A DNA stretch of 64,000 nucleotides from a virus: IMG/VR virus record IMGVR_UViG_3300018719_000001. One strand, 5' to 3'. This document shows, piece by piece, positions 28,057-59,753 of the stretch. Position 1 is the stretch's first letter; each line of letters opens with the position of its first letter. The position numbers and the translations under genes are program-made. Under the pieces are notes generated by a model. It searched no databases. It was not told the origin of the DNA and saw nothing but the letters and a program-made list of their open reading frames with translations.

Positions 28057-28104
28057 CAAGATGCACCACAAAACACGCCGAACGGCAAAAGGAGACAATT
28101 ACAT

Positions 28105-28437
28105 ATGGAAATCACACTCGATAAGTTCAAAGAAGTCAGCAACGTTATTGCCAATGTAGAACAATGGTTAGAGCTTGGCGGTGACAATCGTAAATGGGCA
28201 ATCGAAGCTATCAAGACATTGGAAGCAGTCGGTTTTGTCCGCAATCGAGACAAAGAACGACTGTTCGAACGAACAGCTATTCTAGACTACAATGCGACAC
28301 TCGTTCACGAGATCAAGGGCAAGACGTTCTATCTTGGTTCAAAACATCAAATCTCGTTTACGGTTCAAATCTCTCAACTGCCAGACATGACATTTACAAT
28401 GTCTTCCAGTGAGAACAATCCGTTCCCAAGAGCCTAA
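28105..28437 (+). CDS. hypothetical early protein
   Basis: ATG 28105 in GGAGACAATTACATATG context; track start 27931 lies upstream of the promoter. Confidence 0.6.
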   Translation: MEITLDKFKEVSNVIANVEQWLELGGDNRKWAIEAIKTLEAVGFVRNRDKERLFERTAILDYNATLVHEIKGKTFYLGSKHQISFTVQISQLPDMTFTMSSSENNPFPRA

Positions 28438-28535: not shown

Positions 28536-28585
28536 CAAGATGCAAGACAACGAAAACACGCCGCAAGGCATAGGAGGAATTACAT

Positions 28586-28966
28586 ATGATGAACAACCAA
28601 GAACAAAACCAAGTTCGCGCAATGTCTCTGATCGGGCGCACGATGAACATTCAACCGAAAGATCAAACGAAAATCATCAAAAATGTTCGCCTGATCGACG
28701 TAAAAGCCCCAAATGTCGTGTTTCAATACGAAAGCGGCGACAAACAAGGCGAAACGTTCGAACTAGAAGCAAATTCGTTCCTGTGGGAAGCACTGAACAG
28801 CAAAGAGGAAGGAGAAATCTGGCACCACGAATCTACCAAGAATCAACTCTTGGAAGCATACGGTGATGAAGTGCCTGACAGAGTAAGGGATTTTGTTGCT
28901 GAACACATCGACAAACCACTGAAAGAACTGTACGCAATCGTTGAAGCGCGAAGCAAAGAGCAATAA
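28586..28966 (+). CDS. hypothetical early protein
   Basis: TAGGAGGAATTACATATG start context. Confidence 0.65.
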   Translation: MMNNQEQNQVRAMSLIGRTMNIQPKDQTKIIKNVRLIDVKAPNVVFQYESGDKQGETFELEANSFLWEALNSKEEGEIWHHESTKNQLLEAYGDEVPDRVRDFVAEHIDKPLKELYAIVEARSKEQ

Positions 28967-29089
28967 GCCGTCCTAGCGGCTCAAAACAGCCCTTTAAGCT
29001 AGGAGCGTCTACCCCGAAAGGGGTAGGGTAGGGTATATCCCTAAAACATCACAGAAAGCCCGCTAGGGGCTTTAGGAGGTCAATTACAT

Positions 29090-29257
29090 ATGGAACTAAC
29101 GATCAAGTTGGAAGGTCAAATTTTGGAAATTCACCAAGGGGAACAAAAATTGATCACTGCTACGGTGTGGAGTGCTTCAACAGTTGAGGAGTTGAAAACC
29201 GATCCTCAAAAGCTCCTGACATATGCTAGTGCGGTTTTGGAAGAAAACCGAGAATAA
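29090..29257 (+). CDS. hypothetical early protein (55 aa)
   Basis: Own translation; AGGAGGTCAATTACATATG context; terminator follows; below ORF-track cutoff. Confidence 0.5.
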   Translation: MELTIKLEGQILEIHQGEQKLITATVWSASTVEELKTDPQKLLTYASAVLEENRE

Positions 29258-29266
29258 ACAGCATCG

Positions 29267-29294
29267 ACCGCCAGTTTTTGGCGGTTTTTATTTT
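29267..29294 (+). terminator. rho-independent terminator
   Basis: ACCGCC...GGCGGT + TTTTTATTTT. Confidence 0.7.
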
Positions 29295-29304
29295 CAACAC
29301 AGTG

Positions 29305-29334
29305 TTGACAACGCTTCAAAAACTATGATATTAT
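29305..29334 (+). promoter_or_regulatory. early promoter (TTCAACANNGTGTTGACA class)
   Basis: TTGACA-18-TATTAT then CAAGATG. Confidence 0.6.
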
Positions 29335-29389
29335 CAAGATGCACCACAAATCAAATAAAAGCCTAGCGGCTTATAGGAGGTAATTACAT

Positions 29390-29812
29390 ATGAAAATCAA
29401 ATTTAATCATCAGGGCGACCAAATCAATGACGTTTGGGTTTGGTTGACGAACGATGAAATGGATAAATTTGGGCGCAAACAAGAACTTTGCGTGGAAAAC
29501 CTTTTCGGAGTGGATTCGCACATGCCGAAAGATGGAGCTTATGAAACCATGATAACCCTTGGTACGTTTGGCGGTAAAAAGCCTTGCATCGTGTATCATG
29601 TCACTGTTAAGCGTAGCAAAATTCATCCTGAAAACTGTTTTGTGGAGTACGAACTTTTGACCAAGCACATGCATGGTAGCGACGAACGTGTAAGCATGAG
29701 CCATGTAAAAAAATATGAGTTCTATTGCAAGTTCACGCAACGCCGCAATACTCTTGAAAAGTTCATTCGTAAGCTGATTAAAGACGGTCATATGAACTTC
29801 TTCACCAAGTAA
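29390..29812 (+). CDS. hypothetical early protein
   Basis: TAGGAGGTAATTACATATG context. Confidence 0.65.
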   Translation: MKIKFNHQGDQINDVWVWLTNDEMDKFGRKQELCVENLFGVDSHMPKDGAYETMITLGTFGGKKPCIVYHVTVKRSKIHPENCFVEYELLTKHMHGSDERVSMSHVKKYEFYCKFTQRRNTLEKFIRKLIKDGHMNFFTK

Positions 29813-29835
29813 ACCACCCATATGGGTGGTTTTTG
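29812..29835 (+). terminator. rho-independent terminator
   Basis: AACCACCCA-TA-TGGGTGGTT + TTT. Confidence 0.7.
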
Positions 29836-29858
29836 TTATGTAAGATACAAAATAATGC

Positions 29859-29887
29859 TTGACATATCATCAAAAAGGGCGTAATAT
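29859..29887 (+). promoter_or_regulatory. early promoter
   Basis: TTGACA-17-TAATAT then CAAGAG. Confidence 0.6.
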
Positions 29888-29944
29888 CAAGAGTAGCAAG
29901 ACAAACAACGAAAACACGCCGCAAGGCATAGGAGGAATTACATA

Positions 29945-30355
29945 ATGATCAAGCAATACACTTACAGCGAAAATCAAGTTAAAGCGGGCAAGCTGTTGAA
30001 CAAGCTCTATCCGCTCAACAATCATCCGATGCATGAAGTCAGAGCGGAAGTCAAGCGACTGGTAGGAATTGCGGTTGCGAATGGCGGTTCGTTCAAAGTT
30101 GTAAATGATACGCTCCAAATTCGCTACTGTGGGTTCGACTTCGAAGTAAAAAGCGTAAACGGTATTTGCAAAGTTTACTTCGATGAAGAAGACTTTTTCT
30201 CCAAAGAAGAAAGTGAAGCGATCTACAGAAGCGAAATGAAAGCCGAATACGGTTGGTTGCACCGCGCCGAAAGTTCAGGCGAACGCCTTGACCCGCATGG
30301 ATACGAAATCGAACGTCAAATGTGGGACATCGACCCACAAATCTCCTGCCACTAG
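29945..30355 (+). CDS. hypothetical early protein
   Basis: Leader identical to that of 28586 gene; GGAGGAATTACATAATG; TAG stop inside the terminator hairpin. Confidence 0.65.
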   Translation: MIKQYTYSENQVKAGKLLNKLYPLNNHPMHEVRAEVKRLVGIAVANGGSFKVVNDTLQIRYCGFDFEVKSVNGICKVYFDEEDFFSKEESEAIYRSEMKAEYGWLHRAESSGERLDPHGYEIERQMWDIDPQISCH

Positions 30356-30370
30356 GCAGGAGATTTTTAT
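30341..30370 (+). terminator. rho-independent terminator
   Basis: ATCTCCTGCC-ACTA-GGCAGGAGAT + TTTTT. Confidence 0.75.
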
Positions 30371-30451
30371 TTCAACAAAGTGTTGACTTATGCTTTTGTA
30401 GCGAGTAAAATAATACTTGTAAGGCAATCACATCAAACAAGTGAAGGGGTA

Positions 30452-30763
30452 ATGAAAATGAAAACAAGCCTCAAACATGGTAATGCTATCGCTCGTCGTC
30501 TTTACAATGTTGTAAGAAAAGGAGAGCCACAACTTGTGCCCGCTGTACAGGCTATTGTAAAAGAAACTTTCACGAATGGGAAATTGGTGTTAGAAGAAAA
30601 GCAAAGCGTACTGTTCGTACAAAGCGATACGGCTGGTTTGGCAGATGTTGGGTTTCTCCTAACGGGAGAGGTTTTCGAACCTATCGGTTTGTCGATAGAC
30701 AAAAAGACTATAGGCAAATACTTTGAGATCAAAGGACAGGGCAAGGTAAAACAGTGGAAGTAA
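30452..30763 (+). CDS. hypothetical early protein
   Basis: ATG 30452 after GAAGGGG; track start 30380 lies inside the promoter. Confidence 0.55.
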   Translation: MKMKTSLKHGNAIARRLYNVVRKGEPQLVPAVQAIVKETFTNGKLVLEEKQSVLFVQSDTAGLADVGFLLTGEVFEPIGLSIDKKTIGKYFEIKGQGKVKQWK

Positions 30764-30804
30764 GATGGCATTAATTACATAGCGCGTAGCGCAAGGGGGA
30801 AATT

Positions 30805-31098
30805 ATGATGGCTGTTAAAATCAACGAACAAGGTAAGAAAGAAGCAAGCGTCCGTCATTGCGGAACAATAATCACCTTCACTGAAGGTGAAGGTGCAACA
30901 GTCGATCATGCTGAAGGATTTGAGAAACCGAAATTTGTTGGCTTTCTTCTCTACAAGGGAATCAATTGGGAAACTGGTCAGTTTGAAACCGATATGGGCA
31001 TCTATCAGATGAAGTATCCTAACCTTATGCCTGAACTGCGTGAGCTTGTTAGAAAGTACGAATATGAGGTATGCGGTCATACGAACACCTCCAAATAA
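30805..31098 (+). CDS. hypothetical early protein
   Basis: Promoter-less junction AATTACATA-GCGCGTAGCGC hairpin-AAGGGGG SD. Confidence 0.6.
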   Translation: MMAVKINEQGKKEASVRHCGTIITFTEGEGATVDHAEGFEKPKFVGFLLYKGINWETGQFETDMGIYQMKYPNLMPELRELVRKYEYEVCGHTNTSK

Positions 31099-31122
31099 AC
31101 CACCCGAAAGGGTGGTTTTTCT
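31099..31122 (+). terminator. rho-independent terminator
   Basis: CCACCC-GAAA-GGGTGG + T-run. Confidence 0.75.
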
Positions 31123-31124
31123 TA

Positions 31125-31154
31125 TTGACATGAACGTTTGCGCGTGTTACTATC
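31125..31154 (+). promoter_or_regulatory. early promoter
   Basis: TTGACA-18-TACTAT then CAAGACG. Confidence 0.6.
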
Positions 31155-31200
31155 AAGACGTACCAATTACATAGCGCAACGGCGCATGGAGGTTATCAAC

Positions 31201-31743
31201 ATGGGCAAGCAGTTTACAACCTACACCAAAAAGCAGTTTTACTTCTTCTTGATTCAAACCATGAAAGAGCTTAAAATGTACGGCAAGTGCTTGGAAGTCA
31301 CTGAACAATTCCCCGATACGTGGGAAGCGGTGTATAGCATCCCCACTCGAAACAAATCGGTTGACATCGTGGTTTACTCCTCAGTAGACCTTCGCACCCA
31401 ACGCACACGCGATAAGGGCGCAGACATGGTTAGAATCGTACTTCGGTGGAAAACGAAAGACGGTTTCATGTACAAGCGCATTGCACACCGTGAAAGACTT
31501 GTGACGCTGTTCGCGAACGTCAAAAAGAGCATAGCGGACGCAAACGAAAAGGCGTTCGGTCTGAAGTGGAACGAGTTCCAGCCCATGACGGACTACAAGC
31601 CGCAAGAAACGCCGCAAGCACCGCAAGAGGAGCAAGAGGAGCAACAACCCGAAACGCCACTCACACCGTTTGAAAAGCACTTGGAAGACATGGCGTACAC
31701 ATGGGAAGCACAACGCGCATACGAACAAGGTCACATCTACTAA
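31201..31743 (+). CDS. hypothetical early protein (Q/E/P-rich C-terminus)
   Basis: ATG 31201 after ATGGAGG; box and hairpin upstream. Confidence 0.6.
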   Translation: MGKQFTTYTKKQFYFFLIQTMKELKMYGKCLEVTEQFPDTWEAVYSIPTRNKSVDIVVYSSVDLRTQRTRDKGADMVRIVLRWKTKDGFMYKRIAHRERLVTLFANVKKSIADANEKAFGLKWNEFQPMTDYKPQETPQAPQEEQEEQQPETPLTPFEKHLEDMAYTWEAQRAYEQGHIY

Positions 31744-31744
31744 G

Positions 31745-31769
31745 CCACCCGTTCGGGTGGTTTTCTTTT
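31745..31769 (+). terminator. rho-independent terminator
   Basis: CCACCC-GTTC-GGGTGG + T-run. Confidence 0.75.
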
Positions 31770-31895
31770 GCCCACAGAAGCCCCTAGAATCCTCTGTAAG
31801 CGTTTCTGTGTGTTGGTAGGTACATTGGGTATGCCTAGACGGAAAGACGGCTCTAAGAGCCATACAGGAGCTTGGTAGAGGTTTTCAATTGTCTG

Positions 31896-31924
31896 TTGAC
31901 AATTGATATTGAATCATGTACTAT
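31896..31924 (+). promoter_or_regulatory. early promoter (TTTTCAATTGNCTGTTGACA class)
   Basis: TTGACA-17-TACTAT. Confidence 0.6.
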
Positions 31925-31971
31925 AAAAGAGCATCAATTACATATCTTGAAAACAATTGGAGGGCTGTCAA

Positions 31972-32271
31972 TTGAAAATCGTTGAGAAGCAATTGAAGAT
32001 CGTTGGGGTTCACTCTAAAGCAATGCGGGACTATTGTTACAAAGAGGGGAGCGTTGTTCCTCATCATCTTGCACAAGCACTTTCTGCTAACATGTCAAAC
32101 ATGCAGAATGCGGTAGAAAACTGCGACAAAGATTGGGCTAGAGAGCTACAAAATGAAAGATTTTATCTTTACATCGAAGCGCGAAAGCTATTCGGTTTGA
32201 ATATGAGCCAAATGAATTGGCTATTGTGGGAAGAATTTAAGCATGAAATCACTGACTTTAAAGTCCGATAA
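31972..32271 (+). CDS. hypothetical early protein
   Basis: TTG 31972 after GGAGGG (track TTG 31957 overlaps the SD). Confidence 0.5.
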   Translation: MKIVEKQLKIVGVHSKAMRDYCYKEGSVVPHHLAQALSANMSNMQNAVENCDKDWARELQNERFYLYIEARKLFGLNMSQMNWLLWEEFKHEITDFKVR

Positions 32272-32289
32272 TAGGGGGTGCAACAGAGG

Positions 32290-32388
32290 TTGACACGCTC
32301 TCAACAAATGGCAATCATAGCACGGATGCAACGACAACAGGCGATGAAATGCCTACTAGTTGTAGGTAAAATATCATTGAAGAAGTAA
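32290..32388 (+). CDS. candidate 26-32-aa basic peptide
   Basis: Own translation (M)TRSQQMAIIARMQRQQAMKCLLVVGKISLKK; GGGGGTG SD; terminator follows. Confidence 0.25.
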   Translation: MTRSQQMAIIARMQRQQAMKCLLVVGKISLKK

Positions 32389-32414
32389 CCGCCCGTTTTG
32401 GCGGTTTTTCTTTT
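32388..32414 (+). terminator. rho-independent terminator
   Basis: ACCGCC...GGCGGT + T-run. Confidence 0.7.
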
Positions 32415-32424
32415 CAATTGCTTG

Positions 32425-32453
32425 TTGACTATTATCTAAAAATATGTTATGAT
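32425..32453 (+). promoter_or_regulatory. orphan early-type promoter (no ORF for ~170 nt)
   Basis: TTGACT-17-TATGAT with TTTTCAATTGCTTG upstream. Confidence 0.55.
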
Positions 32454-32460
32454 AGAAGCA

Positions 32461-32625
32461 CGAGCGGTGGCAAGGCAAGTGTCGAATGGGAGGGATGCTC
32501 ACTAACTTTAATGCGGTGAAGCATCAAACGAACAATTCTGAATAGTCGGTTTTCTCTTGCCAAAGGGGTAGTAGGGGAGAACGTCCAAAACGGCTTAGAA
32601 GGGAAGATAGAAGCCTTAGAGTTGA
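32461..32625 (+). ncRNA. candidate noncoding transcript / repeat module X
   Basis: Downstream of the orphan promoter; no ORF; ~120 nt collinear with 36031..36170 (GCGGTGAAGCA...ATAGTC.GTTTT...GGGG.AGT...GTCCAAA...ATAGAAGCCTTAG). Confidence 0.3.
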
Positions 32626-32649
32626 CATTATCGAATATTCAATTTCCTG

Positions 32650-32678
32650 TTGACACATGGAAAAAATCGCGATACTAT
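32650..32678 (+). promoter_or_regulatory. early promoter
   Basis: TTGACA-17-TACTAT then CAAGATGTACCAAACATCAAACATGCC leader shared with the 33041 gene. Confidence 0.6.
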
Positions 32679-32723
32679 CAAGATGTACCAAACATCAAAC
32701 ATGCCACTATTTGGGGGATTGTC

Positions 32724-32921
32724 ATGGAAAAGAAAAATCCTTATCTTGAGAAGAAACTATGGTCATTTCATGATGTTTATGGTTCTGTTATGAAACCAAA
32801 AACAGAACTAATTTTAATGGCGAAAGCAATAGGTTTGAAAGGTTATAGCAAAAAGAGTCAAAACGAATTAACTTGGTTAATTCTGGATGAATTAAAAAAG
32901 CAAGGCAAATATACTGGATGA
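32724..32921 (+). CDS. small protein with HeH/SAP (Rho-N-like) motif
   Basis: ATG 32724; ELILMAKAIGLKGYSKKSQNELTWLI resembles Rho N-terminal/HeH motif; track start lies in the promoter. Confidence 0.45.
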   Translation: MEKKNPYLEKKLWSFHDVYGSVMKPKTELILMAKAIGLKGYSKKSQNELTWLILDELKKQGKYTG

Positions 32922-32958
32922 CTAGCGTAAATTGCTAGTCATTTTTTTCAATTACCTG

Positions 32959-32987
32959 TTGACAGTTCATATTTTGTTTGATACTAT
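32959..32987 (+). promoter_or_regulatory. early promoter
   Basis: TTGACA-17-TACTAT; TTTTTCAATTACCTG upstream. Confidence 0.6.
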
Positions 32988-33040
32988 CAAGATGTACCAA
33001 ACATCAAACATGCCAAACGGCAAACAGGAGGAATTACATA

Positions 33041-33448
33041 ATGACTTGGCTAGCGTCTACGAAAGTCCAAGCGGGGAATCATATCATGGTGAAAGGTGCA
33101 GACGGCACAAAGGAAGCCGAAGTTCTGCATGTCGAGATCGAAAATCAATTCGTAACCTACTTTACTGAATCAGGTTATGCAGAAGTGTCCGTTGATCAGC
33201 TTATCTGCGTTTCTCCCTATGATACGCTAATGGGGATCGAAAGGGATATTGTGAAGTATGATGAAAACGCGCCACGATTCGCAAAACGGACGTATCCGCT
33301 GAAAGATGCAAAATATGTCTGTCAAGTTGGTGACATCTACCGAACGCAATTAGATGGCGATTATTGGGAAGTTCTGGAAGTGATTAGTCAACATGAAATC
33401 AACGATACCCAAGAAATCGTTCAAACGCTGAGAGTGAAAAAGTTCTAG
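33041..33448 (+). CDS. hypothetical early protein
   Basis: CAGGAGGAATTACATAATG context; TAG stop. Confidence 0.65.
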   Translation: MTWLASTKVQAGNHIMVKGADGTKEAEVLHVEIENQFVTYFTESGYAEVSVDQLICVSPYDTLMGIERDIVKYDENAPRFAKRTYPLKDAKYVCQVGDIYRTQLDGDYWEVLEVISQHEINDTQEIVQTLRVKKF

Positions 33449-33523
33449 CAACAAAAACCACCCTTTTGGGTGGTTTGTCTTTTATTTCAAATAAACAGAA
33501 TATTGCGTCTATTCAACAAGTTG

Positions 33524-33552
33524 TTGACAGATTTTAGAATATGAGGTATTAT
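33524..33552 (+). promoter_or_regulatory. early promoter
   Basis: TTGACA-17-TATTAT; CAGAATATTGCGTCTATTCAACAAGTTG upstream. Confidence 0.6.
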
Positions 33553-33618
33553 TTTAATCAAGAGGTTGGCACACCTCGAACCAATTACATAGCGCGTCAC
33601 GCGCAAGGAGGAATTTAA

Positions 33619-33993
33619 ATGTCTAACTCTGTTCGCTTCTACTTCTATACTGTCGATGGTCAACCGATTGAGACTAATCTCAGCAATCTTCCGATGTCTG
33701 GATGCTATGCGTCGATAGTTGTGAAGGTCGAAGGAGTTTGGAAGAAGAAACTTTGGAAAACCAAAAAAGGAAAAACGCTCTTTGGTCGCACGGAAATCAG
33801 AGTGTTTAAATCTCATAGCAGTTATGACTCGATTTCTATCACCGCAGATACTTTTGGGCACGATACGGTTATTGTAAAAGAGTGGAGTCCAGTAGAAACC
33901 GAATGGTTCGTGTTAACCAGACTGCAAGAAGGAGAAAGTTATGCTGATCGAGTAATTTTCGAAGGTGAACACGTAGCGGTTCATTTGAACTAG
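33619..33993 (+). CDS. hypothetical early protein
   Basis: AATTACATA-GCGCGTCACGCGC hairpin-AAGGAGG-ATG; TAG stop. Confidence 0.65.
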   Translation: MSNSVRFYFYTVDGQPIETNLSNLPMSGCYASIVVKVEGVWKKKLWKTKKGKTLFGRTEIRVFKSHSSYDSISITADTFGHDTVIVKEWSPVETEWFVLTRLQEGESYADRVIFEGEHVAVHLN

Positions 33994-34056
33994 CCCTAGT
34001 GGGCTAGTTTTCTTTTTGGAGTAATAAACTGAATATTTCGTAAATTCAACATAGTG

Positions 34057-34085
34057 TTGACATGTGTTCTGTGTTCCTGTATTCT
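34057..34085 (+). promoter_or_regulatory. early promoter
   Basis: TTGACA-17-TATTCT then TGTATCAAGA. Confidence 0.55.
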
Positions 34086-34139
34086 TGTATCAAGAAATAC
34101 ATTACATAGTCGCAAATGGCGACAAGGAGACGATACGAC

Positions 34140-34616
34140 ATGAAATACTTTGCTGGAATCACTACGATGGAAGAACTGAAGAAGGCTTACAAGCGTTTGG
34201 CAAAGAAATACCATCCTGACTTGAACGATCAGAATACAACCGCAATCATGGCAGAAATCAACACCGAATACGAGCGGATGGTTGAAATCTTCCAAATGGG
34301 TGGAGCGACCAACGCAAATGCTTTTGACGGATTCCGTGAATTCATCATGAAACTGCTGAAAGTCTTGGAGGATGTGGAAGACGTGACCGTCGAAATTTGC
34401 GGTTCGTGGGTGTGGGTGACTGGAAACACAAAACCCCATAAGGATAAGCTGAATAAGACAACGGGAGTTGGTATGCAGTACGCAAGCAAGAAACGCGCTT
34501 GGTACTGGTATGAAGGCGAATATGTCAAGAAATCCCGAAAAAATTACAACATGGAAGAGATTCGCGAAATGCACGGTTCGCACGTGATTAAAGAACAAAA
34601 AGCGCTCACCGCATAG
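34140..34616 (+). CDS. J-domain (DnaJ-like) protein
   Basis: ATG 34140 after AAGGAGA; ELKKAYKRLAKKYHPDLN with the HPD tripeptide; no DnaJ zinc-finger/CTD. Confidence 0.75.
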   Translation: MKYFAGITTMEELKKAYKRLAKKYHPDLNDQNTTAIMAEINTEYERMVEIFQMGGATNANAFDGFREFIMKLLKVLEDVEDVTVEICGSWVWVTGNTKPHKDKLNKTTGVGMQYASKKRAWYWYEGEYVKKSRKNYNMEEIREMHGSHVIKEQKALTA

Positions 34617-34757
34617 GTGGGCGTTTTTATTTGCTTAGACAAGCCCCTAGAAGCCCGCATGAGCGGTTTTCGTAGATCGCAAAGGGTGATGGATATGTTT
34701 GTACTAAAAACCGCCTAGAGAGGCGTATAGAGGCGCAAAATAATTTTCAATTGCCTG

Positions 34758-34786
34758 TTGACATATGGGCGAATGTCCTGTATTAT
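34758..34786 (+). promoter_or_regulatory. early promoter
   Basis: TTGACA-17-TATTAT; TTTTCAATTGCCTG upstream. Confidence 0.6.
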
Positions 34787-34846
34787 ATGTATCAAGAGGT
34801 ACGAAACACAAAAACTTGTCGCAAGGCGAAAGGGGTTAATTACATA

Positions 34847-35110
34847 ATGGAAATTCGTCAAAAGCTCATCGAAGGAATTCGTGAAATCGTGGTATACTTT
34901 AAATTAAATTTAGGGCTTGACGCGAAGCACAACATGAGGGTTTGCGATAACTTCATGGAACAGTTGAATGGAGCGCTTCAACTAATCAAGTCTCTAGGAT
35001 ACGGAAAGGATGATGAAATTGCATTTGAATTAAATGAAGCAAGATACTTGATCTACAACAAGCGTCTCGAATTTCAGGATGAACTAAAAAATCTTTCTGA
35101 TTCAAGATAG
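34847..35110 (+). CDS. hypothetical early protein
   Basis: AAAGGGGTTAATTACATAATG context; TAG stop. Confidence 0.6.
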   Translation: MEIRQKLIEGIREIVVYFKLNLGLDAKHNMRVCDNFMEQLNGALQLIKSLGYGKDDEIAFELNEARYLIYNKRLEFQDELKNLSDSR

Positions 35111-35117
35111 AAAACAA

Positions 35118-35161
35118 AACAAGAGCGCTTCATGTGCAAATGTGAAGCGCTCTTGTTTTTC
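35118..35161 (+). terminator. rho-independent terminator
   Basis: 15-bp stem AACAAGAGCGCTTCA...TGAAGCGCTCTTGTT + TTTT. Confidence 0.8.
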
Positions 35162-35299
35162 GTAATATCAATTAAAAACGAACTGACAGAATTGCATAAA
35201 AATTATGTGTATTCAATATAACGTTGACTATGTTGCTTCTAATGTATAGAATATTAATCAAGAGATGGACTTACATTCAACGAGAAAAGAGGAGTGCAA

Positions 35300-35497
35300 A
35301 TGAGCTACCTTGCAAAGCGGATGGAAAGACATCGGCTGGTTCAAAACAGTCTGTATGATGAAATGCAAGCAAATTTCAAGTCTATCAAGCATCTTTTAAA
35401 ACCTGAGCAAGTTGAAATGTGGGAGAACTGCGCTTCCGAAAAAGAAGAGAAGCGCATGTATGCCGAATTTATTGAACCATTATTGCATCAAGATTGA
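35300..35497 (+). CDS. hypothetical early protein
   Basis: ATG 35300 after AAGAGGAG. Confidence 0.55.
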   Translation: MSYLAKRMERHRLVQNSLYDEMQANFKSIKHLLKPEQVEMWENCASEKEEKRMYAEFIEPLLHQD

Positions 35498-35577
35498 TTG
35501 CATAGTTCTTGCCTATTGACAGAGTTGCTTATCACTGTTATAATGACTAAAGATTCAATTACATAGGAGGTTTTGGC

Positions 35578-35889
35578 ATGATCATTCTGCACTCGTACAA
35601 TGCAAAAGAAAACGGTGAAATCGTTACAAAGTGGGTTCTCTTCAAAACTAAGAACGCGAACTACACAAAGTCGATTATCGAGAAAGTCCGTGACTATCTG
35701 GCGAAACACGTTCATCCGAAATACAAAGAGATGTCCGATGTAGCCATTAAAAATGGCTACACGATCAAGTATGACGACGAATGTCTCAAATTGGATAAAT
35801 ATGGCGGTGAAGAGTGGTACGAACTGCGTGACAGAACATCCTTTTGTCTCAAAGAAACAAGGCATGTGACCATCGTAAATATTGACTAA
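35578..35889 (+). CDS. hypothetical early protein
   Basis: CAATTACATAGGAGG-8-ATG. Confidence 0.65.
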   Translation: MIILHSYNAKENGEIVTKWVLFKTKNANYTKSIIEKVRDYLAKHVHPKYKEMSDVAIKNGYTIKYDDECLKLDKYGGEEWYELRDRTSFCLKETRHVTIVNID

Positions 35890-35921
35890 CAAAACAACCA
35901 CTCCACAGGAGGAGTCGCACA

Positions 35922-36005
35922 TTGAACGTGATAAACAAGCGTAAAACGTGGTTTGATCGAGTTACGCGAAAGATCAGAAATACAGTCAAGAAAGCCATCC
36001 ATTGA
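35922..36005 (+). CDS. candidate 27-aa basic peptide
   Basis: Own translation MNVINKRKTWFDRVTRKIRNTVKKAIH; GGAGGAG SD; terminator hairpin overlaps the stop. Confidence 0.3.
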   Translation: MNVINKRKTWFDRVTRKIRNTVKKAIH

Positions 36006-36030
36006 GATGGCTTTCTTTTGATCAAGTCAA

Positions 36031-36170
36031 TTTATTGCGGTGAAGCACTGAACTACAAATAGGCAGAATTATTTGCATAGTCAGTTTTTTTCACTGCAAG
36101 GGGATAGTGTGGGTGTTCGTCCAAATACTCATATAAGGGCAAATAGAAGCCTTAGCGGGCAGGTTCGCAA
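36031..36170 (+). repeat. noncoding repeat module Y (paralogue of 32505..32625)
   Basis: Collinear blocks TTGCGGTGAAGCA, ATAGTCAGTTTT, GGGGATAGT, GTCCAAA, ATAGAAGCCTTAG. Confidence 0.5.
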
Positions 36171-36295
36171 CAGGAGATCGAATGGAAATGTACGCAAGCA
36201 ACTTAGAAATTTTCTGTTGACATATTATTCATATTCATTTATTATGATAGCTAAGAGGAGGATTTTCCTCAACAATTACATAGGGAGAGATTAAA

Positions 36296-36658
36296 ATGAA
36301 AGATCGCAAGGTTTATCCTGCCGAACACTTCGCTAATTCGGTAGTAGTGGAATACCAAGATAATGATGTCCTTTTTTCTGTGGTCAAGCGGAACGATGGA
36401 ACCGCAAGTGTGCTAAACCTGTTTGGTGGAAGCATCGACAGCAAATGTGCACTTGTACAGCGATTCTTCCAAGAGTTTCCAGAAGTTTGGAAGCTCACAA
36501 ACCAAGTTCACAATGTTAGTGAACTAAAGGCATGTTATAAAGCTGGATTGCGGTATCACTCACAAGAGTCGAATTGTCCGTTTAATCTTTCGGAAACGGT
36601 TGCTCTTGTCAAAGCACATGAAGTGCCTAGCGTAAAAATGATCTGGAAACGCTCCTAA
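36296..36658 (+). CDS. hypothetical early protein
   Basis: CAATTACATAGGGAGAGA-6-ATG. Confidence 0.65.
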   Translation: MKDRKVYPAEHFANSVVVEYQDNDVLFSVVKRNDGTASVLNLFGGSIDSKCALVQRFFQEFPEVWKLTNQVHNVSELKACYKAGLRYHSQESNCPFNLSETVALVKAHEVPSVKMIWKRS

Positions 36659-36681
36659 ATGGGGCGTTTTTCAATTTTCTG

Positions 36682-36710
36682 TTGACATATCTTCCGCAAC
36701 GTGTTATATT
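36682..36710 (+). promoter_or_regulatory. orphan early-type promoter
   Basis: TTGACA-17-TATATT; next promoter is only ~135 nt downstream with no ORF between. Confidence 0.55.
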
Positions 36711-36716
36711 CAAGAT

Positions 36717-36805
36717 ACGAGAGGTGTCCAACGAATTCGGGGGAAGAAAGGCAGGGATGCGCTCTCGCTTTAGCGAAGTAAAGCGTAGAAGTTGCGTCGA
36801 GCTTT
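36717..36805 (+). ncRNA. candidate short noncoding transcript
   Basis: Between the orphan promoter and the next promoter; contains CGCTTTA-GCGAAG-TAAAGCG hairpin; ends GAGCTTTTT. Confidence 0.25.
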
Positions 36806-36817
36806 TTCAATTGCTTG

Positions 36818-36846
36818 TTGACACATGGAGTTTTTGATGGTATTCT
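36818..36846 (+). promoter_or_regulatory. early promoter
   Basis: TTGACA-17-TATTCT then TATATCAAGAGG. Confidence 0.6.
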
Positions 36847-36909
36847 TATATCAAGAGGTGAAACTACCTTACTCAATACGCGTCATAAGCGCATAGGAGG
36901 AATTACATA

Positions 36910-37338
36910 ATGAACCGCTTCAACCGCTATCAACTGAAACCGCTTGGAAAATCTGTTCACCATCGTCAAATCATCGGAAAGGTCAATTATCACGGATTTC
37001 ACACGTTTGTTGATGTATACAGCACTTTGGCAGGCGAAGAAATGCATGAAGTTTCTGGCAAAGTGCTTGTAATTAAGTTCAAAGGTTCTGAAGAAACTAG
37101 GGAAACCATCGTGCATGGTGGTTACACTTCAGACGGAAGACGGGTAGCGTTCTGCCATCAAAAAACGGTTGCACCAGAAGACATGGAATATTGGCTGAAC
37201 CTGACTTGCGAAACAGAAGAAGAAAGAGAGGGGGAGCGCAAGAGGATAGAGGAGTTCCGCAAAAACCCTGAAACGTATGCGACACTGATTGACGCGAATG
37301 GATATGAATATATCCGTATTGAAGATACTACCCTTTAG
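36910..37338 (+). CDS. hypothetical early protein
   Basis: ATAGGAGGAATTACATAATG context. Confidence 0.65.
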   Translation: MNRFNRYQLKPLGKSVHHRQIIGKVNYHGFHTFVDVYSTLAGEEMHEVSGKVLVIKFKGSEETRETIVHGGYTSDGRRVAFCHQKTVAPEDMEYWLNLTCETEEEREGERKRIEEFRKNPETYATLIDANGYEYIRIEDTTL

Positions 37339-37353
37339 GGTAGTATCTTTTTA
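37323..37353 (+). terminator. rho-independent terminator
   Basis: AGATACTACCC...GGGTAGTATCT + TTTT, overlaps the stop codon. Confidence 0.75.
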
Positions 37354-37498
37354 TATGGCTTAAATCCAACATTCGCGCTATGGCTTCTATCTGGTCATGT
37401 GCGGCGTTTTGGTGGCTCTAGGCTATATTCGTATTGGGTTGACTAGAAAAGCGCCTTACAAGCCAAAATAGAAGGTCAAAAATATTTTCAATTAACTG

Positions 37499-37527
37499 TT
37501 GACACTTATGGTTGCACATGGTATATT
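37499..37527 (+). promoter_or_regulatory. early promoter
   Basis: TTGACA-17-TATATT. Confidence 0.6.
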
Positions 37528-37578
37528 GTTTTCAGGGGCAGATAAGCCCGAAACAATTACATAATCGGAGGGGTTCAA

Positions 37579-37911
37579 ATGGCAACACTTATCGTAAATC
37601 CTGACAACACTCGTATGCGCCGTGTGGAGAGTCATCAGCCGTTTCTGGCTGATTTGGACGAAATGCGCAAGTATGGCGTAAAAGCGTTCGTCCTGTCGTG
37701 GCTGATCGCACACTTCGATCATAGTGGCGAAAATATGAGAGATTTTCATTGGACAAAGTTGGGCGAAGAAACGGAAGTTCTTAACTGTCAGGGCTTCTAT
37801 GAATGGGACGAACGATTTACTTTGTCTTACGTGGCTCTGACCATCGACGGATTCTTGATCGCCGTCATGCAAGACGCAAACGACGATGAAGTTAAATACC
37901 AAATCAACTAA
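37579..37911 (+). CDS. hypothetical early protein
   Basis: CAATTACATAATCGGAGGGG-6-ATG. Confidence 0.65.
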   Translation: MATLIVNPDNTRMRRVESHQPFLADLDEMRKYGVKAFVLSWLIAHFDHSGENMRDFHWTKLGEETEVLNCQGFYEWDERFTLSYVALTIDGFLIAVMQDANDDEVKYQIN

Positions 37912-37947
37912 AGTTAAGCGGTGGGGAAACTCACCGCTTAACTTTTT
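37911..37947 (+). terminator. rho-independent terminator
   Basis: 13-bp stem AAGTTAAGCGGTG...CACCGCTTAACTT + TTT. Confidence 0.8.
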
Positions 37948-37978
37948 ATGGATGCTACGAAAAACTTTTAACATAGTG

Positions 37979-38007
37979 TTGACAGTGTGTTCTATTGGTG
38001 TTATATT
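37979..38007 (+). promoter_or_regulatory. early promoter
   Basis: TTGACA-17-TATATT; TTTTAACATAGTG upstream. Confidence 0.6.
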
Positions 38008-38063
38008 ATAGATAAGACGACAGCACAAAACATGCGCAACGAGCGCAAAGGAGAGAATTACAT

Positions 38064-38327
38064 ATGACGGAACACGAAAAGAAATACAGCGAAATTGTCG
38101 AAGCGGTGGGTTTGAATAATCTGATTCCTCTTATCCCTGCAACGAAAGAAGAAGTGCAAGATGCGCTCTCATGTAACTGTTATTTAAACAACATTCCTCT
38201 TCAAAGTTGGGACATGCAACACTTCAATGTTCTCAGATTGACTAAACGAGCAGGATATCAGGATAATTCGTTATCGTTTACGGTATGCGTTCTGAAACAA
38301 GCGGCTAGAATGTGGGCAAAATCATAG
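38064..38327 (+). CDS. hypothetical early protein
   Basis: GCGC-AACGA-GCGC hairpin, AAGGAGAGAATTACATATG. Confidence 0.65.
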   Translation: MTEHEKKYSEIVEAVGLNNLIPLIPATKEEVQDALSCNCYLNNIPLQSWDMQHFNVLRLTKRAGYQDNSLSFTVCVLKQAARMWAKS

Positions 38328-38485
38328 TATTTTATAACCCTGTATCTCTACAGGGTTCTTTTTAACTGAGCAGTTATCTGAATATTCCGTGTATTCAATT
38401 GATTGTTGACTTTCTTTTCCGTATCCTGTAGTATTATGTTTGTAAGAGAACAACACGCGCATAGCGCAAAAGGAGACAATTACAT

Positions 38486-38914
38486 ATGGCAAACGCTTAC
38501 TACGAACTGAAACAGAAACATCAGGCAGAAGTAAACAACTTCCCGATGGTGTTTGCATTTAGCAAACAACAGTTTGCGGAAGCAATGGAGAAACTTGGGT
38601 TGACGGAAGCCGACACTGACAAAATCTATTCTATCGGTGGCGGTGGATTCATTCGCAAATCTGATTCGGATGCATTTGGTGAAATGTTTAAACGCCACGC
38701 CAAGGAAATGCAGGAAGCCGTTGACGCTGACAGCACAGGAGATGGATTCGTATTTGACATGTTCAACTACGAATTAGCTAATCATGAATATGTCTTGACA
38801 TATGATGTTCAGCCCGCTCTCGACGCTTTAGACCTCACCATAGAACAGGTCAACACAGACCCGAAACTCAAACATGCTCTCGAAAAAGCATGTAAAGCAC
38901 AATTTGAAGTATAG
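38486..38914 (+). CDS. hypothetical early protein
   Basis: GCGC-ATA-GCGC hairpin, AAGGAGACAATTACATATG. Confidence 0.65.
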   Translation: MANAYYELKQKHQAEVNNFPMVFAFSKQQFAEAMEKLGLTEADTDKIYSIGGGGFIRKSDSDAFGEMFKRHAKEMQEAVDADSTGDGFVFDMFNYELANHEYVLTYDVQPALDALDLTIEQVNTDPKLKHALEKACKAQFEV

Positions 38915-38992
38915 CAAGCACATAAACCCATAGCAATATGGGGTTTGTGCTATATATTAATTATCAGAAAATTTTGTATATTCAATTGGGTG

Positions 38993-39021
38993 TTGACATT
39001 ACCTTACATCTCATGTAATAT
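38993..39021 (+). promoter_or_regulatory. early promoter
   Basis: TTGACA-17-TAATAT; CAGAAAATTTTGTATATTCAATTGGGTG upstream. Confidence 0.6.
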
Positions 39022-39075
39022 AAGACTTGTAAGGCAAATCAATTACATAGTGCGAAGCACACAGGAGGAGCCAAA

Positions 39076-39366
39076 ATGAACAACACGAAAACCATCTTCA
39101 ATACCGATGAAACCTTTGTCTATCAGATCGTTGTTGATGGTAAGGAAACGAAATACTACAAAGGTGTTCATGACCTGTTCGAAAACTGCGGTTTCCGTTT
39201 GACGGGTGTAAATCAGTCTCAAAGCACACGCGAAGAACTGCAACGGCAACCGAAATTCAGCGGGTTAATTGGTCCGATGTGGAACGGCTATCATGAACTT
39301 GAAGGTGTTAAGTATCCCTGCATTAGATACGAATGCCCGAAAGAATATGCTACCTATGCAAACTAA
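39076..39366 (+). CDS. hypothetical early protein
   Basis: AATTACATA-GTGC-GAA-GCAC hairpin-CAGGAGG-ATG. Confidence 0.65.
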   Translation: MNNTKTIFNTDETFVYQIVVDGKETKYYKGVHDLFENCGFRLTGVNQSQSTREELQRQPKFSGLIGPMWNGYHELEGVKYPCIRYECPKEYATYAN

Positions 39367-39504
39367 AGCAGGGCTTCCCCTGCTTTTTCTAATTTGTCAA
39401 TTTACTGAAAATTCCGCGAATCCAATTTACTGTTGATATTATATCTATCTGCCTGTATTATAAGACTTGTAAGGCAAATCAATTACATAGGGAGATGGAA
39501 GAAC

Positions 39505-39913: not shown

Positions 39914-39953
39914 ATTAGATGTAAGCGACAATTACATAAGGAGATGGGGAAAC

Positions 39954-40540: not shown

Positions 40541-40808
40541 GACAATTCCACTTTAGTACGGTGAAGCGTCTAATCATTGAATAGTGCTATAGGACTAGTA
40601 TTAAAGTCATGTTGTCGTCTACAGGCTCTAGGAGCCATTTTAAGCGATTTTACCCCTTATCTGGTATAATCCTATTCGGATGATGTGAAACGCCATTCTG
40701 GTGGCATTCTAAGGGCTGTGTTTTTGTTGGTGTTCCTGTTAGAATGGGGTTGCAAACGCAAGACACTAGATTATAATAAGGATATAGACTGATAAGGTGG
40801 TGTTTCGT

Positions 40809-40964
40809 ATGGAGATCACAACAAATTGCTTGGGGCAAGTGTGGGTAAAGTGTGTTCGTGACTATTATGTTGGTAAACTTCGTACAATGAAGAAAGATGA
40901 ATTTTATTTAATCCATCTTTCAACTGCAAAAATGCTACAAGCTCAAGGGTTTGTTGAAATCTAA
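40809..40964 (+). CDS. candidate 51-aa protein
   Basis: Own translation; AAGGTGGTG SD; stop followed by an AATTACATA box and terminator hairpin. Confidence 0.4.
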   Translation: MEITTNCLGQVWVKCVRDYYVGKLRTMKKDEFYLIHLSTAKMLQAQGFVEI

Positions 40965-40975
40965 ATAATTACATA

Positions 40976-41010
40976 TTAAGCAGACGTAAATAAATGCGTC
41001 TGCTTAATTC
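40976..41010 (+). terminator. hairpin terminator (weak T-run)
   Basis: TTAAGCAGACG...CGTCTGCTTAA. Confidence 0.5.
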
Positions 41011-42449: not shown

Positions 42450-42501
42450 CGTTTTAGTGGCAGATATACCACGACAACAATTACATAATGGAGGGTTCAT
42501 A

Positions 42502-42822: not shown

Positions 42823-42907
42823 GTGGTTTTTCTTTTTAATAAGGTATTGATATAATTTTAAAAATATGCTATAATTAAGAAAAGTCGTAATTACATAGGG
42901 GGAAAAG

Positions 42908-43309: not shown

Positions 43310-43389
43310 CTGTTCTTTTTCTATTGACACACAACGCGTGACATGATATATTGAATATAGAGATTCAATTACATATCAGGAGGGTTATT

Positions 43390-43943: not shown

Positions 43944-44036
43944 TTGGGGCGATTTTCTTTTTGTTCTTATCTGTTGACAGTGTTACTTATGACTGCTATA
44001 ATAATAATAGATTCAATTACATAGGGGGAAATACTA

Positions 44037-44351: not shown

Positions 44352-44525
44352 GGGGGCTTTTGTTTGTTGACAATAGATGATTTTTCAATTGCTTGTTGCA
44401 AACAAAAAAGCAATGAGCGCTGAAAAAAGTTGTTGACTGTCACTTTCATCCATGTTATACTAAAAGTGTCGAAAGGGATAAACACTAATCGACAAAAAAT
44501 TACATATGAAAAGGTGGAATTATTA

Positions 44526-45238: not shown

Positions 45239-45267
45239 TTGACTTTTGTACGCACTAGTAGTATTAT
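45239..45267 (+). promoter_or_regulatory. early promoter
   Basis: TTGACT-17-TATTAT. Confidence 0.55.
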
Positions 45268-45318
45268 ATAGACAGAGGAAAACAACATTTTGCATCAATT
45301 ACATAGGGGGTTTTGCAA

Positions 45319-45387
45319 ATGCAAACCATTAAGGCTCTATTCGTGGAGCCAGAAAAGTTCTCCAAGGTTGTAGAAATCGACATATGA
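45319..45387 (+). CDS. 22-codon ORF upstream of MazF-like gene (remnant antitoxin or leader peptide?)
   Basis: Own translation MQTIKALFVEPEKFSKVVEIDI; CAATTACATAGGGGG SD context; followed by hairpin CGGGGGA...TCCCCCG. Confidence 0.3.
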   Translation: MQTIKALFVEPEKFSKVVEIDI

Positions 45388-45450
45388 GGACGAAGATAGT
45401 CAACGGGGGAAGTGACACATATGTCATCTCCCCCGTTTGAATTTTTGTTG

Positions 45451-45517: not shown

Positions 45518-45898
45518 ATGGAAGCAGTAGCCAGAACACATAACGTTGTACCAATGCCGCGCTACGACTATATGCGCGGGGATATTTATATGGTAGACCT
45601 TAACATTGACTCACACGGCAGGGAGCAACGGGGCTATCGTCCCTGTGTAATCGTCTCCAACAATATAGGAAACAAGTTCTCTCCAATTGTAACCGTTATT
45701 CCCATCACGTCCAGCAAAAAGGACTTTAAATGTCATGTGCCAGTAGTATCTGAAGCTCTGGATAAAGATAGCGTTGTTACCTGTGAGCAGGTCAAGACCG
45801 TCGATAAAACACGACTTAAAAATAGAATTGGTCGATTGACTTCTAGTGAAATGGAAGCAGTTGACATGACGCTGAAAATGAGCTTAGGATTGAGTTAA
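45518..45898 (+). CDS. mazF: MazF/PemK/EndoA-family endoribonuclease (no cognate antitoxin gene seen)
   Basis: By-eye full-length alignment to B. subtilis EndoA: RGDIYMVDL..GREQRGYRPCVIVSNNIGNKFSPIVTVIPITS...DSVVTCEQVKTVDKTRL; ATG 45518 after AGAGGTG. Confidence 0.85.
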   Translation: MEAVARTHNVVPMPRYDYMRGDIYMVDLNIDSHGREQRGYRPCVIVSNNIGNKFSPIVTVIPITSSKKDFKCHVPVVSEALDKDSVVTCEQVKTVDKTRLKNRIGRLTSSEMEAVDMTLKMSLGLS

Positions 45899-45988: not shown

Positions 45989-46035
45989 TATATCAAGAGA
46001 TGAGTAGTTCGTTACAAAGAGGAGGAATTACATAA

Positions 46036-47892: not shown

Positions 47893-48382
47893 AATACATC
47901 TAAACAAAAACCACCTTCGTCGGGTGGTTTTTTTGTTTGGATGTAAGTGATAGGAGTAGCTTGCAGGACATCCTCTGTGGCGCTCTCGTTGATATGTGTG
48001 ATCGTTTCTACGGCTGTTTGATAGCCTAGCGCATACTCACGAGTTTTGGGCGATATGCTGAACCTAAAACGCTATAAGATGTTATTGACTGCTGTTTTAT
48101 TATGTGTTAGCATTGATATGCGGTAAGGGTTTCATCATATAGCCCCATATGTGGCGCATAATGGGGCAACAATTATTTGGATGGTGTTAATGTTGTTTAA
48201 CACTAAAACACCAAGAATACGAAGGGCATAAAATACTTGAACATCTAAATAATACCTTAGAATACATTAATTCTATGTAAATCAACGGTAGCCTTGTCTC
48301 ATTTTGTAGTTGACAACCATACCGAATTTTGGTAAGATGAAAGTAGAAACGCATTACATAGTGGAGGGAGAATCATTTGCAC

Positions 48383-48936: not shown

Positions 48937-49052
48937 TGTAACAGTAGCCACCCACAAAAAGGGTGGTTATATTTTTGTATCAGGGTGTTGACATGTGTCG
49001 ATAATTGTCCTATAATTTTGGGTAGTAGGACAAATTACATAAGACAAGGAGA

Positions 49053-50355: not shown

Positions 50356-50388
50356 AAAAATAGATCAATTACATAAAGGTGTGATGAC

Positions 50389-51162: not shown

Positions 51163-51203
51163 TGCTAAGTTATCTACGAATTACATAATCGGGAGGTTAT
51201 TAT

Positions 51204-51511: not shown

Positions 51512-51549
51512 AATGGTAGATCGAATTACATAATGAGAGGGCAGATATT

Positions 51550-54602: not shown

Positions 54603-54639
54603 TAATTCATGTTCAATTACATAGAAACGGAGCGAAGAC

Positions 54640-55563: not shown

Positions 55564-55599
55564 TTAAATGCAAGATAATTACATATTGGAGGTATGAGA

Positions 55600-57146: not shown

Positions 57147-57176
57147 TGAAATAGAAGGCAAGTCAATATTACATAG

Positions 57177-59707: not shown

Positions 59708-59753
59708 GTAAACAGAAAGCAGGAATTACATAAGAAAAGGAGAGTGGACAAAA

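Follow-up and report, generated by a model that had tools for sequence, protein, structure and literature searches.

In T4-type phages, promoter-early stem-loop (PeSL) elements have been described as mobile regulatory cassettes (Arbiol et al. 2010, PMC2839356), in which small early genes, mostly ORFans, are each flanked by a stem-loop and a strong promoter of the host type, and which are thought to drive modular shuffling (PMC2839356). Phage T4 also has RegB, a sequence-specific endoribonuclease whose motif is found within or beside the Shine-Dalgarno (SD) sequence of early messenger RNAs (mRNAs) and which ends their expression (PMC2988021). In Bacillus subtilis, an interplay between MazF and phages has been reported, in which phage transcripts are enriched in MazF sites (phi3T/SPbeta; bioRxiv 10.1101/2023.04.27.537455, PMC10769878), and 5' stabilisers are known in the form of the aprE 5' stem-loop, which acts together with ribosome binding, and of a strong SD in hbs that blocks RNase J1 (PMC3997798, PMC5737220). 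Here we analysed a stretch of 64,000 nucleotides (nt) of IMG/VR virus record IMGVR_UViG_3300018719_000001 (the window), in which the leaders of small early genes combine a short hairpin abutting the SD with a 9-nt box that contains the MazF hexamer. Judged from sequence, these leaders may be modular cassettes, placed before early genes, that join a stabiliser unit to a MazF switch whose outcome is set by the position of the box; we give this reading roughly an even chance of being right.

From ~27.9 kb onwards, the + strand of the window carries dozens of small open reading frames (ORFs), mostly without a recognisable family, and many of these early ORFs are individually equipped with a consensus sigma-A-type promoter and a terminator. 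The 9-mer AATTACATA occurs 35 times on the + strand of the window and never on the − strand, with 1.13 copies expected from shuffles and 35 copies reached in none of 100 shuffles, and the 8-mer ATTACATA marks five further + strand sites, which we call variant boxes. TACATA is part of every one of them, the 35 nine-mers as well as the five variants, all on the + strand past 27 kb. The box is strand-specific and confined to leaders. Although ATTACATA lies 13–56 nt past a consensus −10 hexamer at 33 of these 40 sites, the position of the box tracks the translation signals and not the promoter: relative to SD and AUG there are a few fixed classes of placement, the box end falling within 1 nt of the start codon (−1 to +1) in 11 leaders and 6–31 nt upstream in the remaining ones, whereas the distance of the box from the −10 hexamer is variable. 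Moreover, the box is found in intercistronic leaders that have no promoter (29082, 30773, 51179 and 54615).

Because the box is strand-specific, lies at a variable distance from the −10 hexamer, keeps to fixed SD/AUG classes and occurs without a promoter, and because the stems of the accompanying hairpins vary in sequence yet stay paired, the data point to action of the box at the RNA level, not the DNA level. The same observations make it highly improbable that box and GC palindromes act as DNA operators or roadblocks through which a phage transcription factor shuts early promoters, even though most boxes lie 13–56 base pairs (bp) downstream of a −10 hexamer and several hairpins are GCGC...GCGC palindromes. 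A trans-acting antisense RNA finds no support in the window, the complement of the box being absent from its + strand. One box has no following ORF: at 40967 (+), directly after the end of gene 40797–40964, it is immediately followed by an 11-bp hairpin (40976–41007).

To describe the hairpins, we used a set of 38 leaders with a called start, 20 at 28–39.5 kb and 18 beyond 39.6 kb, and defined a strict hairpin as one with at least four Watson-Crick pairs, at least three of them G-C, and a loop of 3–6 nt; transcription start sites (TSSs) are predictions from promoter spacing. Strict hairpins were found in 13 of the 20 leaders at 28–39.5 kb, compared with 0.8 ± 0.8 in dinucleotide shuffles (maximum 4 in 500). 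Over all 38 leaders the mean minimum free energy z-score was −0.84 (p = 2.6e-4), indicating that the leaders fold better than shuffled ones. The hairpin is separated from the SD core by 1–4 nt in 15 of 15 hairpin leaders. Stem sequences differ among leaders (GCC, GCGC, GUGC, AAGCC, UCGC and others), while pairing and position are kept; since the stems vary in sequence yet stay paired, what is conserved is a structure and not a DNA site. The leader grammar consists of one hairpin-SD unit and a movable MazF-site box, and hairpin-SD adjacency is its true constant. All eleven hairpins listed in a preliminary description of this region are present, 0–5 nt from where it had placed them. That description had also proposed two fixed orders of hairpin, SD and box; both orders exist (layouts A and B below), but the commonest order is a third one that has no hairpin, and an extra 5'-terminal hairpin is present in six leaders.

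In layout A, the order is hairpin, SD, box and AUG, and the box fills the 8–9 nt spacer between SD and AUG. All leaders given here and below are on the + strand. The first is at 28077–28107, with a 3-bp hairpin at 28077–28086 (GCCGAACGGC, found at 28077 and first placed at 28074), the box at 28097–28105 and the AUG at 28105. It is followed by 28560–28588, with a GCC-GCAA-GGC hairpin, AGGAGG, the box at 28578–28586 and the AUG at 28586, and this hairpin (GCCGCAAGGC), found at 28560 and 29918 (first placed at 28555 and 29915), recurs in the leader at 29918–29947 (hairpin 29918–29927, box 29936–29944, AUG 29945). The three stems at 28077, 28560 and 29918 are of only 3 bp, with a 4-nt loop. The leader at 29055–29092 is promoter-less and has a 7-bp hairpin (29055–29073; box 29082–29090, AUG 29090), and that at 29359–29392 has a 5-bp hairpin (29359–29372, AAGCCTAGCGGCTT, found at 29359; box 29382–29390, AUG 29390). 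Further layout A leaders are at 33011–33043 (hairpin 33011–33022, box 33032–33040, AUG 33041), 34819–34849 (hairpin 34819–34829, box 34838–34846, AUG 34847) and 38033–38066 (hairpin 38033–38047, within which GCGCAACGAGCGC was found at 38034; box 38056–38064, AUG 38064), and before a DUF7659 gene at 38457–38488 (hairpin 38457–38467, GCGCATAGCGC, found at 38457 and first placed at 38455; box 38478–38486, AUG 38486). At 36855–36912, an extra 5'-terminal hairpin (36855–36870) precedes the SD-adjacent one (36879–36891; box 36901–36909, AUG 36910). The gene just downstream of mazF has the layout A order without a strict hairpin (46018–46038; SD, box 46026–46034, AUG 46036). In the layout A leaders between 28063 and 38456, the tract from predicted TSS to hairpin is A-rich and U-poor (78% A+C vs 51% regionally) and carries repeats such as ACAAAACAC.

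Layout B has the box first, then the hairpin and the SD, with the hairpin beginning 0 nt after the box in five of five leaders. These are an intercistronic, promoter-less leader at 30773–30807 (box 30773–30781, hairpin 30782–30792, GCGCGTAGCGC, found at 30782; AUG 30805) and leaders at 31165–31203 (box 31165–31173, hairpin 31174–31185, GCGCAACGGCGC, found at 31174; AUG 31201), 33562–33621 (5'-terminal hairpin 33562–33577, box 33583–33591, hairpin 33592–33604, GCGCGTCACGCGC, found at 33592; AUG 33619) and 39041–39078 (box 39041–39049, hairpin 39050–39060, GTGCGAAGCAC, found at 39050; AUG 39076), together with that of a DnaJ-domain gene at 34101–34142, which has the variant box ATTACATA (34101–34108; hairpin 34109–34123, GTCGCAAATGGCGAC, found at 34109; AUG 34140). 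A lambda nut-type boxA/boxB arrangement was rejected: the order box-then-hairpin occurs in only 5 of 38 leaders and is reversed in layout A, and the stems and loops differ (loops GUA, AACG, UCA, AAAUG and GAA), with no conserved loop.

Layout C, in which the box is followed directly by the SD with no hairpin between them, is the commonest, accounting for 22 of 38 leaders, and it also occurs within 28–39.5 kb, in 6 of 20 leaders (~31.9, 35.6, 36.3, 37.6 and 39.5 kb). Its boxes in that interval are at 31936–31944 (then SD, no strict hairpin), 35557–35565 (14 nt past the −10 hexamer and directly followed by GGAGG), 36274–36282 (leader 36255–36282, with a 5'-terminal hairpin at 36255–36270), 37555–37563 (leader 37536–37563, with a 5'-terminal hairpin at 37536–37549) and 39481–39489, the last in a leader that duplicates the one at 39021. 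Further along are layout C boxes at 39930–39938, 42479–42487 (leader 42457–42487, with a 5'-terminal hairpin at 42457–42472 and an SD after the box), 42889–42897, 43367–43375, 44015–44023, 49033–49041, 50367–50375, 51524–51532, 55577–55585 and 59724–59732, and intercistronic ones with no promoter at 51179–51187 and 54615–54623. Variant 8-mer boxes stand in layout C at 48353–48360 (ATTACATA after C) and 57168–57175 (ATTACATA after T), and another at 58730–58737 is directly followed by GGAGG. At 44468–44506, a 5'-terminal hairpin (44468–44493) precedes a box (44498–44506) that is predicted to be paired (probability of being unpaired 0.03). The six extra 5'-terminal hairpins upstream of the box (33562, 36255, 37536, 36855, 42457 and 44468) lie 4–6 nt from it where this was measured (33562, 36255 and 37536).

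Parts of these leaders are exact duplicates of one another. A 40-nt leader patch of family D6 (28547–28586 and 29905–29944) is 100% identical before unrelated ORFs, and its identity stops at the start codon. A 36-nt patch of family D1, which comprises the −10 hexamer and 5' leader (32671–32706 and 32980–33015), is identical up to a point inside the hairpin: the copy at 32671 has the 5' arm only and lacks the 3' arm, a strong SD and the box, whereas the copy at 32980 runs on into a layout A hairpin-SD-box. An identical 30-nt leader patch of family D2 (39021–39050 and 39461–39490) continues as layout B in one copy and as layout C in the other. These three duplications had been noticed before (as 28549/29907, 32673/32982 and 39021/39461), and all of them are exact, while the ORFs behind each pair are unrelated, showing no similarity by BLASTP. 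Repeat families D1–D6 are terminator-promoter-leader units, among which the promoter families D1–D3 are stereotyped. The earlier suggestion of a shuffled pool of expression cassettes is thus supported as far as reuse of the leaders goes, exact patches of 30–40 nt standing before unrelated ORFs with one junction within a hairpin. The mosaicism of the leaders would fit recombination between cassettes, and the data support the view that the leaders are modular expression cassettes that were copied and recombined before unrelated small early genes. Recent duplication alone, by which cassettes were copied along with their promoters while hairpin and box have no function, would account for the exact duplicates and the stereotyped promoters of D1–D3. 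However, the 9-mer is invariant in 35 copies whose flanks have diverged, the box stands in three arrangements and in otherwise dissimilar leaders, and the stems differ yet remain paired and adjoin the SD, so that we regard this explanation as extremely improbable.

The box embeds UACAUA on the transcribed strand, which is the exact strict site of MazF/EndoA. EndoA, the MazF of B. subtilis, cuts only U^ACAUA in vivo (PMC11780869). This specificity is common to the MazFs of Listeria and Staphylococcus aureus and conserved across Bacillota MazFs, and a single U^ACAUA in the 5' untranslated region (UTR) renders a green fluorescent protein reporter MazF-sensitive (both PMC11780869; bioRxiv 10.64898/2026.08.06.743204). 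A Pfam scan of the early ORFs identified an orphan gene for a PemK/MazF-family endoribonuclease at 45518–45898 (+) (PF02452, E = 3.4e-31). This phage mazF has a promoter to itself (−35 hexamer at 45451). No recognisable antitoxin precedes it, its leader lacks the box, and TACATA is absent from its coding sequence. The best solved relatives of its product are the UACAU(A)-specific MazFs of S. aureus and Bacillus (~45% identity), and alignment with Bacillus MazF 7bxy showed that it keeps the equivalents of Arg25 and Thr48, which have been named as essential MazF residues (PMC10893535), together with the surrounding blocks. Just upstream of mazF, at 45239–45440 (+), lies a short transcription unit with a promoter, a layout C box at 45297–45305, a 22-codon ORF and a strong terminator hairpin; its product could be a small peptide, or else an RNA with a MazF site that acts as a decoy or like an antitoxin.

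Leaders with TACATA are also found in other elements. Psychrobacillus phage Perkons encodes a MazF that is 44% identical, and it has TACATA leaders at 8 of 15 first genes vs 3 of 67 later genes (Fisher p = 2e-5); in this phage, TACATA ranks first of 60 orderings of its letters. Four TACATA-SD leaders occur in an unrelated ArdA/DUF7659 element, and a TACATA-SD leader also precedes a homologue of gene 31201 (50% identical). Because the flanks differ among these elements, their shared core is the MazF hexamer and not the 9-mer of the phage studied here. In the Logan contigs L141 and L142, which encode ArdA, a RecD2-like helicase and DUF7659, four consecutive leaders consist of an A-rich tract, UACAUA and the SD, and TACATA occurs 14 times on the sense vs once on the antisense strand of L142. 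The opposite pattern was seen in an 11-kb phage-like contig (L151, MazF 45% identical), with 2 sense vs 8 antisense copies (~9 expected from base composition) and none in a leader.

A box that is bound, alone or with the hairpin, by a putative RNA-binding phage protein that regulates translation in the manner of T4 RegA, the match of the box to the MazF site being coincidental, would not be expected to keep TACATA as a core with different flanks in Perkons and the ArdA element. It would account for the conservation of 8–9 nt, past the MazF hexamer, and for the position of the box at or beside the ribosome-binding site, and the early ORFs, most of them without a recognisable family, could include such a binder. 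Nevertheless, no RNA-binding family was found among 40 early proteins by the Pfam scan, and an exact, rare, strict hexamer together with mazF in the same cluster is improbable by chance. We therefore consider a RegA-type binder distinctly unlikely.

An identical 18-mer, SD-AAUUACAUA-AUG, was found before genes at L200 1072 and 3314 (−) and L217 4745 and 7150 (−), in Bacillus changyiensis and Bacillus sp. WMMC1349. The products of these chromosomal genes begin MRINHNIAAL, which reads like a flagellin. A host gene so appears to share the arrangement of layout A. This finding bears on another reading, in which the leaders are pure translation modules without cleavage, the hairpin insulating the SD and the AU-rich box serving as an unstructured spacer or enhancer with an incidental UACAUA. 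The 18-mer before Bacillus genes speaks for it, as do the exact fit of the layout A box to the optimal 8–9 nt SD-AUG spacer, the abutment of hairpin and SD, and a slightly higher SD accessibility with the native hairpin (0.59 vs 0.51). On the other hand, the difference in accessibility falls short of significance (p = 0.09), a spacer leaves unexplained why the same 9-mer lies 5' of the SD, 10–31 nt upstream of the start, in 27 leaders, and this reading offers no reason why a phage mazF co-occurs both here and in Perkons. On balance, we judge pure translation modules unlikely, though worth keeping in mind.

We return to the stabiliser unit with a MazF switch. The full cassette would consist of a sigma-A-type promoter, an A/C-rich 5' tract, a short GC hairpin abutting a strong SD, and the 9-nt box AAUUACAUA. 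In this model, the hairpin-SD unit is most likely a 5' stabiliser or roadblock, comparable to the B. subtilis elements that stop RNase J1, and a role of the hairpins as 5'-end stabilisers, as had been suggested in the preliminary description, is plausible. For the box, a cleavage switch is the most likely role, because U^ACAUA is the exact Bacillota MazF/EndoA site and the phage has its own antitoxin-less MazF homologue; the cutter would be the phage MazF, the host MazF or both. The predicted effect of a cut depends on the layout. In layout A, it would sever hairpin and SD from the ORF and leave a leader of 4–5 nt, turning the gene off. In layout B, the 5' end would be lost and the message would begin with 5'-OH-ACAUA followed by hairpin and SD, remaining translatable and protected. 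In layout C, the triphosphate end, with any 5'-terminal hairpin, would be removed, and the SD would come to lie ~5 nt from the new 5'-OH end.

Between two early ORFs, at 28966–29033 (+), a self-cleaving ribozyme of the Pistol class was found (60 bits against a gathering score of 34.5); it is followed directly by the hairpin-SD-box leader of gene 29090, which has no promoter. Self-cleavage of Pistol ribozymes leaves a 5'-OH end. By analogy, a Pistol cut at gene 29090 would give a 5'-OH end followed by hairpin and SD, like the outcome proposed for layout B. Taken one step further, the cassettes, together with a domesticated MazF toxin, could make up a temporal programme that is self-contained and RegB-like, in which one nuclease acts on one box and position encodes the outcome: immediate-early genes with SD-box-AUG would be switched off, genes with box-hairpin-SD would be matured to hairpin-capped translatable mRNAs, and Pistol would do the same job constitutively for one gene. 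We offer this programme only tentatively and consider it rather doubtful.

Several observations weigh against a stabiliser unit with a MazF switch. Regarding the hairpins, none of the 18 leaders beyond 39.6 kb has a strict one (shuffles 0.1 ± 0.3, maximum 1 in 500), and none were seen in the leaders of Perkons and L147 when these were read by eye. The layout A hairpins start 14–26 nt from the predicted 5' end, while classical 5' stabilisers sit terminally; a 5'-proximal hairpin is present only in the six leaders with an extra 5'-terminal one and, in layout B, would arise only after the hypothetical cut in the box. The trend in SD accessibility given above is weak here too. It had further been proposed that the hairpins present the box as single-stranded RNA, and folding does not support this: the mean probability of UACAUA being unpaired is 0.65 overall and ~0.77 in the cluster at 28–39.5 kb vs 0.69 with shuffled flanks, so that the box is no more accessible than by chance (0.65 vs 0.69, p = 0.2, in the wrong direction), and in these predicted folds it appears to be open simply through its AU-richness.

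Regarding the site and its cutter, 8–9 positions of the box are conserved and not six, for which the hexamer site alone is no explanation. C never follows the box (0/40; G 15, A 13, U 12); in B. subtilis, trimming after a cut by EndoA depends on the base following the site (PMC11780869). About 17 plausible promoters have no box, and because of these the box-less leader of mazF is not special and by itself weak evidence. The phage MazF is only ~45% identical to the characterised UACAUA-specific enzymes. Avoidance of UACAUA in coding sequences was considered and rejected, 6–8 copies being observed vs 5.8 expected from synonymous shuffles, and an apparent strand bias of TACATA vanished under synonymous-codon shuffling; coding sequences thus give no hint that MazF cutting outside the leaders is strongly selected against.

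The window belongs to the genome, ~164 kb long, of a large Bacillota phage, and unchanged copies of this genome were found in several metagenomes. The first ~22 kb of the window encode, on the − strand, a portal protein, terminase, exonuclease, helicase and ~28 transfer RNA (tRNA) genes. By portal protein, the nearest isolates are only ~41% identical and comprise Brevibacillus phage Sundance, Alicyclobacillus phage KKP_3916 and large Bacillus siphoviruses. Searches of IMG/VR, INPHARED and GTDB genomes revealed no relative, only identical copies of the phage genome. Megablast of the window against INPHARED gave no near DNA match; pattern scans of IMG/VR for SD plus box and for the promoter motif gave single chance matches only, and a 415-aa protein used as query there gave one match of 32%, without boxes. 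In GTDB genomes, the portal protein had no match, and the 18-mer SD-box-AUG had 80 loci, none of them box-dense. The neighbourhoods of homologues of DUF7659, gene 31201 and MazF were either the same genome again (L138 and L139, identical) or unrelated elements.

Other features were noted along the window. A Skipping-rope RNA (RF02924, 71 bits) lies at 11292–11370 (−), within the phage tRNA array. A conserved family of promoters that share one spacer (TTGACAAACGA.AACTATGTAT.ATATAAT) occurs at 17120 and 19404 (+) and at 27779 (−), in the orientation opposite to that of the TACATA hits. At 32425–32620 and 36031–36155 (+), repeated non-coding modules of families D8, D9 and D13 share 70 nt at 71% identity; one of them has its own promoter and no ORF, and these modules are candidate phage small RNAs.

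MazF is encoded in 136 phage records of INPHARED. To our knowledge, the role of the MazF genes in these many records has not been explained, and the proposed switch, if true, would give phage-borne MazF toxins a concrete job. It would also mean that the cut site of a toxin can serve as a regulatory grammar with position-dependent outcomes. In synthetic biology, ribozyme-plus-hairpin insulators have been engineered, and the leaders described here would be a natural counterpart of them.

Compared with the systems described at the outset, the locus resembles each in part. As with PeSL cassettes, repeated units of promoter and stem-loop (families D1–D6) are found at small ORFs that are mutually unrelated by BLASTP. 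However, the PeSL stem-loop is a terminator, whereas here there are terminators plus a separate, SD-abutting leader hairpin and a 9-nt RNA box; moreover, the host phylum differs, and the present cassettes are known from one genome. With B. subtilis stabilisers the leaders share a stem-loop and a strong SD in the 5' leader, here 1–4 nt apart in all 15 hairpin leaders, but the classical stem-loops are at the very 5' end, a position that is taken here only by the six extra hairpins or would be reached in layout B after a cut. T4 RegB offers a functional analogy to layout A, in which cleavage is predicted. The RegB motif is GGAG, so that both the protein and the motif are different; moreover, the mRNA of RegB is itself a RegB target, while the mazF leader has no box. 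The MazF-phage interplay of B. subtilis involves the identical hexamer, and there too a site in the 5' UTR confers MazF sensitivity on a reporter. In that case, however, the enrichment is of UACAU within the ORFs of SPbeta-like temperate phages with genes for MazF inhibitors, while here the sites are in leaders, fixed relative to SD, AUG and hairpin and inside a longer 9-mer, and the phage carries a MazF toxin with no recognisable antitoxin. Regulatory cassettes and MazF-phage interplay are thus already known, and the hairpin-SD unit with a movable MazF-site box is a new variant.

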